From assembly GCF_003334255.1 (NCBI RefSeq), contig NZ_QOWU01000073.1: a stretch of 18,664 bases of DNA; one strand, given 5' to 3'. Below are positions 1,611 through 2,161 of the stretch, one piece after another (the stretch's first letter is position 1; every line of letters starts with the position of its first letter). The notes under the pieces are model-generated. The model was given only the letters and a program-made list of their open reading frames with translations. It was not told the DNA's origin and searched no databases. Made by a program: the position numbers and the translations under genes. Source of the DNA: Escherichia coli (GTDB lineage Bacteria; Pseudomonadota; Gammaproteobacteria; Enterobacterales; Enterobacteriaceae).

Positions 1611-1647
1611 AAACCCCGTTTGTTGGCAGCAAGCGGGGTTTTGTTTT
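1611..1647 (+). terminator. Rho-independent terminator downstream of endolysin
   Basis: AACCCCGTTTG / CAAGCGGGGTT forms an 11-bp stem with one G-U wobble and a 7-nt loop, followed by TTTTGTTTTT. An A-tract upstream makes it potentially bidirectional. Confidence 0.55.
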
Positions 1648-1713
1648 TATGGCAGTAAGCTATGGGAGGCTGCCTTGATTGATTTTAGCAAACTGATTAG
1701 GGAGTTGCGACTC

Positions 1714-1809
1714 ATGATTAGTCAATTACCAAACTGGAAATTTTTGCTGGTCTGGAGCATCCCTTTTTTATGGGTAGTATCCCAGTTAATTGTGGCAATT
1801 AAGGGGTAG
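1714..1809 (+). CDS. Small hydrophobic peptide A, 31 aa (MISQLPNWKFLLVWSIPFLWVVSQLIVAIKG)
   Basis: GGGAG 9 nt upstream of ATG 1714. One predicted TM helix. It is the 3' part of track ORF 1597..1809, whose 5' part overlaps the terminator hairpin. Confidence 0.3.
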   Translation: MISQLPNWKFLLVWSIPFLWVVSQLIVAIKG

Positions 1810-1811
1810 CT

Positions 1812-1943
1812 ATGTCAGACAAACTCATAACGCCGGCAAAGGTCCTGTGTGTGATTGTCGGTATTTCATTTTCACTAATGCTGGTTGCTCTTTTTCTGTC
1901 CCTCGCCTGGGTGATGTTGTCTTCGTCGGGGCTGCTGGGGTGA
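1812..1943 (+). CDS. Small hydrophobic peptide B, 43 aa (MSDKLITPAKVLCVIVGISFSLMLVALFLSLAWVMLSSSGLLG)
   Basis: AAGGGG 8 nt upstream of ATG 1812. One long hydrophobic segment. Below the 60-aa cutoff, so absent from the ORF track; translated by hand. Confidence 0.35.
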   Translation: MSDKLITPAKVLCVIVGISFSLMLVALFLSLAWVMLSSSGLLG

Positions 1944-2062
1944 CAGTGACTGATGACATCAGCAGAGCGCTGGCTTTTGCTATTAAGTGGGTGGCTGTTG
2001 GTATTGCTGTGTCTCCGATGCTGTATGGGCTGGCAAAACTGGTCATTGCGCTGAAATCGTGA
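1940..2062 (+). CDS. Small hydrophobic peptide C, 40 aa if started at GTG 1940 (..DDISRALAFAIKWVAVGIAVSPMLYGLAKLVIALKS)
   Basis: GTG overlaps the stop of peptide B (GTGA). Hydrophobic core resembles peptide D at the amino-acid level. The alternative ATG at 1790 gives a 90-aa product whose N-terminus overlaps peptides A and B and looks non-protein-like. Confidence 0.25.
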   Translation: MTVTDDISRALAFAIKWVAVGIAVSPMLYGLAKLVIALKS

Positions 2063-2074
2063 ACTTTAAAAAGA

Positions 2075-2161
2075 TGAGTGCTGAACTTATTCGGGCAATG
2101 GCATTTGCCATTCGTATTGTGGCCATTGCTGTTCTGGTCTGGGCAATTCGTTGGTGGTGAT
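2075..2161 (+). CDS. Small hydrophobic peptide D, 28 aa ([28 protein letters not shown])
   Basis: Stop TGA at 2159-2161 overlaps the Rz start ATG at 2162-2164 (TGATATG). Paralogous to peptide C (RALAFAIKWVAVGIAV vs [16 protein letters not shown]). Weak SD. Confidence 0.3.

Follow-up and report, generated by a model that had tools for sequence, protein, structure and literature searches.

Selectively constrained genes for four small hydrophobic peptides between the endolysin and spanin genes of a lambdoid Escherichia coli prophage, and their possible role in lysis

In the late region of a lambdoid Escherichia coli prophage of the Shiga toxin (Stx) phage / Qin type, four short open reading frames (ORFs), here called A, B, C and D, lie tightly packed on the same strand between the lysozyme gene R and the spanin genes Rz/Rz1, behind an intrinsic terminator. 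The prophage was studied in a stretch of 18,664 nucleotides from contig NZ_QOWU01000073.1 of assembly GCF_003334255.1, which is called the window in the following. Our comparisons show that all four frames are under frame-specific purifying selection, at levels comparable to those of R and Rz, and that they are real genes, not chance ORFs. The genes are already catalogued as anonymous families and are not new to the databases, so that the novelty is confined to three results, namely the evidence of selection on the peptides, the corrected gene models with the recognition of C and D as shortened paralogs of a family of 48-60 amino acids (aa), and the terminator-headed shuffled arrays across several lysis cassettes. 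The genes are thus conserved ones without assigned function in one of the best-studied phage gene cassettes and, whatever their role, the peptides provide a clean test case of selected membrane proteins of 28-43 aa.

The places and lengths of the four ORFs, given as 31, 43, 40 and 28 codons in a preliminary description that was made from the letters of the window, were confirmed, and all four are on the plus strand. Peptide A (31 aa, MISQLPNWKFLLVWSIPFLWVVSQLIVAIKG) runs from ATG 1714 to 1809, with GGGAG 9 nt upstream as the Shine-Dalgarno (SD) sequence, and its homolog in PhiR5_1 has the identical 31-aa length despite another upstream context; an alternative start at TTG 1675, with the better SD sequence GGGAGG 5 nt upstream, would give a 44-aa product. 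Peptide B (43 aa, MSDKLITPAKVLCVIVGISFSLMLVALFLSLAWVMLSSSGLLG), with one strongly hydrophobic helix, runs from ATG 1812 to 1943 with GGGG 5 nt upstream, and the good SD sequences reported for A and B are therefore both present. Peptide C (40 aa, 1940-2062) starts at a GTG that overlaps the stop of B as GTGA, in agreement with what had been described, while the alternative GTG 1946 would give 38 aa. Peptide D (28 aa, 2074-2160), a shortened paralog of C, starts at an ATG 11 nt past the stop of C and has no SD sequence. Its end reads ...RWW, TGA (2158-2160), one base and the ATG of Rz (2162), so that the stop of D, contrary to the preliminary description, does not overlap the start of Rz. As had been noted there, the packing is tight, with genes that overlap or nearly touch, as if translationally coupled.

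Each peptide has one hydrophobic stretch and never two. In A, B and C the stretch is about 19 residues long (KD19 1.9-2.9), which agrees with the single hydrophobic helix that had been assigned to each of the four peptides. For D that assignment is doubtful, because this peptide of 28 aa has three Arg (at positions 7, 14 and 26) and just 11 uncharged residues after R14.

The selection on the frames was determined with relatives gathered from phage records, 160 viral contigs and public assemblies, the synonymous and non-synonymous differences being counted in every frame. For the core of C (30 codons) the ratio of the non-synonymous to the synonymous substitution rate (dN/dS) is 0.03-0.23 in all pairs, with dS of 1.3-1.8 against the Salmonella copies; the comparison with one Salmonella copy gives 15.5 synonymous and 4.5 non-synonymous differences (Fisher P = 7e-8), and that of the window type with PhiR12_3 gives 5 synonymous and 1 non-synonymous. 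The main variants of B have dN/dS of 0.17-0.44 in frame versus 0.5-4 out of frame (Fisher P = 1e-3 to 9e-6). For A the in-frame values are 0.12-0.19, with 0.17 against PhiR5_1 (7.5 synonymous, 6.5 non-synonymous; Fisher P = 0.002), and for D the comparison with locus L176 gives 0.22 (6 synonymous, 5 non-synonymous, all conservative; P = 0.02). Over A to D the other two sense frames have values from 0.5 to above 5, and constraint on the antisense frame that shares the wobble positions is in every case weaker than that on the sense frame. For scale, the neighbouring genes have dN/dS of 0.07 (R) and 0.26-0.28 (Rz). The frames are also conserved in relatives, with lengths and stops kept across E. 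coli and Salmonella. Selection on the peptide, which the preliminary description had argued for C and D, thus holds for all four, with in-frame values of 0.03-0.44.

Three gene models need correction, namely the 70-aa and 51-aa models of the Prokaryotic Genome Annotation Pipeline (PGAP) and the 90-aa members of PHROG, all of which include unselected upstream sequence. The 70-aa model of A (1597-1809) runs through the terminator, is not conserved and is broken in phiSTEC1589 by a 1-nt deletion. Where the 51-aa (PGAP) and 90-aa forms of C extend over B, they use the +2 frame, which has dN/dS of 1.6-4.3 and is unselected; it is the members of phrog_3246 (90 aa) that include this stretch outside the selected frame. 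Note also that in phiSTEC1589 C is frameshifted and D is largely deleted. A 123-aa antisense ORF (1825-2196, minus strand), which runs across B, C and D and is not among the PGAP genes, was rejected, its dN/dS being above 5 over C and about 1 over D; because it changes frame relative to the constrained one, it is taken as an artefact of the hydrophobic codons of the sense strand.

The preliminary description had pointed to the similarity of peptides C and D despite their diverged DNA, and the alignments identify the two as paralogs: the Smith-Waterman score has z = 5.2, hhalign gives a probability of 93.6% (P = 2e-7), the aligned DNA is identical at 32 of 57 positions and the paralog dN/dS is 0.24. 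Natural intermediates between the two are seen in P0151 and P0174, where a D-type N-terminus stands on a C body, and P0175 is a 49-aa Salmonella form that ends in RWW like D. The canonical form of the family has 48-60 aa and reads M.KYKRILLRLTMKNGLE..APVTDD..AFAIKWVAVG..LYGLAKL.IALKS; its full-length 60-aa version matches phrog_1115 end to end (residues 1-60, E = 1e-42), and its N-terminal segment is the most conserved part, with dN/dS of 0-0.29 in the E. coli, Salmonella and metagenomic copies. Relative to this form, the conserved N-terminal YKRILLRLTMKNGL segment is gone from the C of the window, which is joined on behind B. D is shortened internally in comparison with P0175, the 49-aa form that abuts Rz in Salmonella, and the two have the old junction RWW-stop-T-ATG (Rz) in common. 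This junction form belongs to a Salmonella prophage remnant that is present in more than 1600 data blocks. By these alignments C and D derive by truncation from the phrog_1115 family of 48-60 aa. A distant relation of A to the C/D family is possible, for which the comparison with C is suggestive only (Smith-Waterman P = 0.0065; hhalign 19%, P = 0.0013). A search with the C-family profile in 1.84 billion representative proteins gave 13 matches, 12 of them small ORFs (with 3 fragments or frameshift variants) and the last a spurious 418-aa protein, and the contexts that were checked are Enterobacteriaceae prophages or metagenomic contigs.

As an alternative origin it had been suggested that C and D are relics of duplicated N-terminal transmembrane (TM) segments of Rz. 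This did not hold. The Smith-Waterman comparison of the peptides with the Rz N-terminus, judged against shuffles, gives z = -0.8 for C, 1.3 for D, 1.8 for B (P = 0.07) and -0.5 for A, and hhalign with the Rz TM segment gives P = 0.67 (C), 0.035 (D), 0.09 (B) and 0.56 (A), with probabilities of at most 1.5%. B as a copy of the Rz TM segment was likewise rejected as not significant (P = 0.07-0.09). The relic idea holds in another form, in that C and D are shortened versions of the family described above and not of Rz.

Behind the endolysin gene such peptide genes form arrays of varying composition. The arrangement R-A-B-C-D-Rz was found in about 75 loci and R-C-B-Rz in about 78 loci; further arrangements are R-231aa-A-B-C-D-Rz, R-C-B-C-D-Rz and R-A-B-C-B-Rz, and in Stx phages R-Ant-B-Rz. 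The interval from R to Rz has fixed lengths of 642 and 487/492 nt, the A-B-C-D array having the fixed 642-nt interval in 72 sampled loci. These arrangements show that the peptide families are separable modules that have been reshuffled by recombination. The arrays occur behind the endolysin gene in three unrelated types of cassette: one with a PF04971 holin and the 177-aa lysozyme, one in Salmonella with a holin_2_3-type holin and a 161-aa lysozyme, and one in E. coli with holin_8, holin_3_7 and a GH108 endolysin. Two more peptide families, E and F, accompany the C and B types in L173, which is the GH108 cassette, and in L176, a cassette of the PF04971 type. In all the Rz-bearing cassettes examined (the window, P27, PhiR12_3, L171, L176, L177, L181 and 933W) a B-, C- or D-type gene ends about 10 nt or less from the start of Rz, and in the examined Stx-phage cases (P27 and 933W) it is B that lies directly upstream of Rz. 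Parts of the array are present in 1749 of 5426 complete E. coli genomes, which is about a third, with 3260 places in all, and the full array (at least 80% of it) in 589 of them, including the ST131 strain JJ1886.

It is noted that the GH108 cassette (L173 2807-3461, GCA_047883205.1) has two holin-family genes with the GH108 endolysin gene and no Pfam-detectable Rz. Past a terminator hairpin it carries an E-type ORF of 65 aa, a C-type ORF of 38 aa, a B-type ORF of 44 aa and an ORF of 51-60 aa, the last with a signal peptide and an LVGC lipobox (phrog_7528).

The strong terminator that had been seen ahead of the peptide genes was borne out. It occupies 1610-1650 on the plus strand, with a stem at 1610-1642 (15 bp, 3-nt loop) and a U tract, the tract GUUUUUAU lying directly 3' of the stem; its minimum free energy is -21.1 kcal/mol (z = -3.8) and none of 200 shuffles folds as well. 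Because a T-rich run also follows on the minus strand, termination may be bidirectional. In nearly every context examined the array is preceded by a terminator-like hairpin. It is of the AAAACCCCG...CGGGGTTTT type in 8 contexts, which besides the window are L006, L171, L173, L176, L169, L179 and L180; in P27 and PhiR5_1 the hairpin behind R is of another kind, and so is that at the boundary of the Salmonella remnant L177. No sigma-70-like site was found on the plus strand at 1650-1714, between the terminator and peptide A. The promoter-like sites number 4 in all, not above the mean of 5.2 in shuffles, and among them a weak one (9/12 matches) is on the minus strand at 1818-1789.

Between R and the terminator lies a non-coding segment (1520-1609, plus strand), which can be aligned in P27, PhiR5_1, PhiR12_3 and L176 and partly in Salmonella L171. 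Its core CGGATAACAC[G/A]AAATCC recurs in L171 behind a different lysozyme gene. In the 642-nt class a hypervariable patch at 1535-1593 has 26 polymorphic sites in 60 nt versus 10 in the whole array of about 500 nt, which gives it the look of a joint left by recombination or of an RNA element that evolves fast. The prophage small RNAs Pas, AgvB and AsxR were considered for the segment and rejected, the Pas paper placing PasA and PasC between an esterase gene and the holin gene. Rfam gave no match in the whole window at its gathering thresholds, and none at E <= 1 for 1400-2300 on either strand.

That the peptides would be missed by standard annotation was correct only in part. PGAP has all four as 'hypothetical protein' (WP_001043230, WP_001280935, WP_042004856 and WP_032140280 for A to D), and each matches a PHROG family of no assigned function: A matches phrog_6632 (E = 6e-5; 1e-12 for the long form), B phrog_4906 (E = 5e-21), C phrog_1115 (E = 6e-25) and D phrog_4493 (E = 4e-7). 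These families (phrog_6632, 4906 and 1115/4493/3246), to which the direct profile matches range from E = 6e-5 to 1e-42, are the same small ORFs catalogued from other E. coli and Salmonella phages. The claim does hold for B-type genes elsewhere. The B-type ORF is full-length in 276 of 276 matched phage records, mostly of Stx-converting phages, and in most of the 25 phage-record matches listed it has no annotated feature. In the 933W record (NC_000924.1; L182 3921-4070) the 153 bases between ant and Rz are unannotated, yet they encode MMGWLMISDKLITLVKSLCVLVGISFLVMLVAIFFSTAWRVLTLSGLVG, a B-type ORF of 43-49 aa that ends 7 nt ahead of the ATG of Rz. Peptide B has 103 database relatives, of which the named ones are all from E. 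coli and none has a Pfam domain. No paper on these ORFs was found in the full-text literature searched by peptide sequence, WP accession and topic.

As to the function, we propose tentatively that the four are late, Q-dependent inner-membrane peptides that tune lysis, a reading for which the recurrence of the arrays behind the endolysin gene in three cassette types and their abutment on Rz speak, and to which we give a real chance that still falls short of an even one. In the model the peptides would belong to the Q-dependent late operon of the lambdoid prophage, inside a cassette of pinholin, endolysin of the signal-anchor-release (SAR) type and spanin. By what is established for lambdoid late operons, the terminator would be passed only by the Q-modified polymerase. 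As the stretch from the terminator to A gave no promoter, Q-antiterminated late transcripts would be the sole source of the peptides, which with such late-only transcription would appear alongside the holin, the endolysin and the spanin; in the lysogen the upstream terminator would silence these membrane-active products, which would be a sensible safeguard. By coupling, translation would proceed through A, B, C and D in turn and then into Rz. The peptides would insert in the inner membrane as bare single helices, where they may associate with the TM segments of the pinholin, the SAR endolysin or the i-spanin and so modulate lysis, or may lower the membrane potential, either route shifting the time of holin triggering. 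Lysis time would thereby become tunable in evolution through changes in how many peptides an array has and in which order.

If the peptides do tune holin triggering, an evolvable control of lysis time would be added to the lambdoid lysis paradigm, and in Stx phages the lysis time sets the burst size and the timing of toxin release. A wider proposal, which we consider improbable, is that the lysis cassettes of enterobacterial phages have an accessory layer, so far unrecognised, to which the peptides belong and in which terminator-gated shuffled arrays of single-helix peptides (A, B, C/D, E and F) set the triggering time of pinholin and SAR endolysin. B would then also influence the timing of Shiga toxin release, since it stands directly upstream of Rz in P27 and 933W and its 276 phage-record matches are mostly in Stx phages.

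Several observations weigh against the lysis-tuning reading. In K-12 Qin the R gene directly overlaps the Rz gene with no peptide insert, so that the 642 bases between R and Rz in the window are an optional insert; phage lambda, to our knowledge, likewise has no such insert, and lysis as such can therefore proceed without the peptides. Genes of the C type are also found away from lysis cassettes, behind tail-fibre or SASA-domain tail genes (L169 2805-3168, L179 580-732 and L180 3001-3189), each with a terminator-type hairpin 35-50 nt upstream. The C family is thus not tied to lysis genes, and caution on the proposed mechanism is needed, because C-type genes after tail-fibre genes would fit a general late-operon cargo equally well. 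In the C and D of the window the conserved N-terminal segment M.KYKRILLRLTMKNGLE..AP is absent, C starting with VTVTDD and D with MSAELIRA, and the two may be weaker or partly degenerate members of the array. Compared with its closest relatives, the divergent B copy in L181 is close to neutrality (dN/dS up to 0.9), and in the A-B-C-D class, sampled by identity to B, the polymorphism (5 synonymous, 4 non-synonymous) is too sparse to show ongoing selection in this arrangement. As a side observation, the C-type genes of L169 are two tandem paralogs, followed by a DUF1353 gene.

The homology searches weigh in the same direction. Neither the B nor the C family has a Pfam match, and the first sequences had none with the threshold relaxed to E <= 10. 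The searches of NCBIfam and of PDB sequences gave none for the peptides, and in Pfam, NCBIfam and PDB no homology to a holin, antiholin, releasin or spanin was detected. The core of C (KWVAVGIAVSPMLYGL) resembles the second transmembrane domain (TMD2) of the class II holin of the cassette, which is of the pinholin S21 family PF04971, including the Gly/Ser spacing. C as a copy of this TMD2 was nevertheless rejected and is kept as a weak lead (shuffle P = 0.005, uncorrected; hhalign 2-8%, P = 0.004). Class II holins have two TM segments while C has one; the peptides have no Pfam or PHROG holin match, the cassette holin matching phrog_9876 and phrog_20 and the peptides neither, and the C-family profile search described above returned no holin. 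The predicted protein P0165, from a 554-nt ENA contig, has the N-terminal 36 residues of the class II holin fused, at the QW/KW-VAVG motif that the two share, to the last 23 residues of peptide C, and it is either a real deletion between the holin and C genes or an assembly chimera.

Membrane proteins that act on lysis from within or next to the cassette are known. Lambda S107, phage 21 S71, T4 RI and P1 LydB are cassette-associated membrane antiholins that delay holin triggering by TM or periplasmic contacts. The peptides share their location in or next to lysis cassettes; S107 and S71, however, arise from the holin gene itself by alternative starts, soluble domains are present in RI and LydB, and we know of none among these four that is a bare helix of 30-40 aa or comes as a shuffled multi-copy array. 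The closest functional precedent is ORF52 of the Salmonella phage BSPM4, a 64-aa protein with a single TM domain, which is localised in the membrane, binds the holin and delays lysis, and which is stated to have no homology to any characterised protein (PMC11657625). The likeness lies in the description as a small one-helix phage protein. ORF52 is moreover an early gene far from the lysis cassette, whereas the peptides would be late genes inside it, arrayed and shorter (28-43 aa). A looser analogue is the Mu releasin gp25 (DUF2730), a small protein of 99 aa with a single TM domain, which is encoded a few genes from the SAR endolysin and controls its release, and of which the 73-aa cytoplasmic domain is required for function (PMC9239132). 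By contrast, the peptides have almost no extramembrane part and no DUF2730 or other Pfam match, and while the releasin acts with a SAR endolysin, they also adjoin the non-SAR GH108 endolysin.

The proposal that the peptides tune lysis has to be weighed against other explanations, of which the best surviving one is that they are accessory inner-membrane peptides of the moron type unrelated to lysis, for example for superinfection exclusion, as the preliminary description had also considered, or for modulation of a transporter. Such peptides would act on a host membrane protein or on incoming DNA, and their cassette would have landed at moron sites of the late operon. Lambdoid morons such as bor, lom and HK97 gp15 are optional genes for small membrane proteins at hot spots of the late region, with mosaic distribution, and the peptide genes share the optional mosaic insertion: their presence is variable among closely related phages, ant and other inserts are found in the slot between R and Rz as well, the family has a narrow range confined to prophages, and the C-type genes behind tail-fibre genes, each with its upstream hairpin, are in keeping with such cargo. 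However, morons typically have their own promoter, a downstream terminator and expression in the lysogen, while here no own promoter was detected and the terminator is upstream, from which the lysogen expression that is usual for exclusion genes is not expected. Also, none of A, B, C60, D, E, F and the lipoprotein-like ORF of L173 has a PADLOC match at E <= 1, and the abutment of a B-, C- or D-type gene on Rz in every Rz-bearing cassette examined counts against this explanation. We therefore regard the moron explanation as unlikely, but as one to be taken seriously.

More doubtful is the explanation that C, D and possibly A in the window are decayed remnants, translated mainly as coupling spacers toward Rz, with a function of their own only in B and in the full-length C-type genes elsewhere. 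It would account for the loss from C of the YKRILLRLTMKNGL segment, which is under constraint in other copies, for the internal deletion of D with its three Arg, for the start of D so close behind C with no SD sequence, for the frameshifted C and largely deleted D of phiSTEC1589, and for the sparse polymorphism of the A-B-C-D class. In a pure spacer, though, the amino-acid sequence would be unconstrained, whereas the core of C differs from that of PhiR12_3 almost only by synonymous changes and D differs from L176 at low dN/dS with conservative replacements only; the fixed 642-nt interval and the presence of the array in 589 complete genomes likewise count against it. On this evidence we hold the decay explanation to be improbable.

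Far less probable is that the peptides are type I toxins held by an antisense RNA that ends at the two-way terminator at 1610-1642. They have the size and the composition of Hok, Ldr, TisB or Ibs-type toxins, sharing with these and with ShoB the hydrophobicity and the likely inner-membrane target, the terminator has T-rich runs on both sides, and the weak minus-strand site at 1818-1789 could be taken as a promoter. But the genes form a tightly packed operon with neither an own promoter nor the long leader of such toxins, the terminator is upstream, the promoter-like sites do not exceed those in shuffles, no antisense RNA gene was detected, Rfam gave no match to a small RNA or a toxin-antitoxin RNA on either strand, and Pfam and NCBIfam gave no homology to the known type I toxin families. 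Finally, that the four are untranslated chance ORFs in non-coding DNA rich in hydrophobic codons is close to refuted: the ORFs are very short, D has no SD sequence and C has only a GTG start, but all four have a frame-specific synonymous excess, their lengths and stops are kept across E. coli and Salmonella, and B is full-length in every matched phage record.

The remainder of the cassette is as follows. The start of the window falls inside the gene of the class II (PF04971-type) holin, which is followed by a YdfR/DUF1327-like ORF at 122-652, an incomplete pseudogene in PGAP. A 91-aa ORF on the minus strand (585-860), a PGAP hypothetical that matches phrog_18136 with E = 4e-52, lies between the holin gene and R and overlaps the 3' end of the YdfR/DUF1327-like ORF, with a terminator-like site on the minus strand at 562-535; L175 and L176 carry a similar minus-strand gene of 113 aa. 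R (986-1519, plus strand) encodes 177 aa, is a 'lysozyme' in PGAP and matches the endolysins of phrog_7 with E = 3e-62. It is predicted from sequence to be of the SAR type, its N-terminus being a weakly hydrophobic, SAR-like segment, and the endolysins of Stx phages have been classed as R21-like SAR endolysins (PMC8136144). The i-spanin gene Rz (2162-2656, plus strand) matches the Rz-like spanins of phrog_13 with E = 2e-77, and the Rz1 lipoprotein gene (2382-2567, plus strand, from the ORF list) is embedded in it.

The stop of Rz is overlapped by a 74-aa ORF at 2653-2877, which looks like a fragment of a longer gene because it matches only positions 100-172 of the 291 of phrog_2571, and about 330 nt of apparently non-coding DNA follow it. 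Farther downstream are the gene of a TonB-C-like lipoprotein, that of an HNH endonuclease and long ORFs that would suit terminase, head and tail genes, among which the terminase small subunit is the sole named one (from an identical RefSeq record). The lipoprotein-like ORF (3207-3548, 113 aa, lipobox LVMGC; 'TonB family protein' in PGAP) stands downstream of Rz at the place that bor takes in 933W and lambda, and a promoter-like site at 3162-3189 on the same strand gives it a typical moron layout. An identical RefSeq copy in E. coli G8 has the gene order unchanged. At the other end of the cassette, a relative of this prophage (L175/L176) has an ADP-ribosyltransferase toxin-like gene (344-1135; Pfam Enterotoxin_a / Scabin-like) immediately upstream of the holin gene, in the position that stx occupies in the Stx phages.

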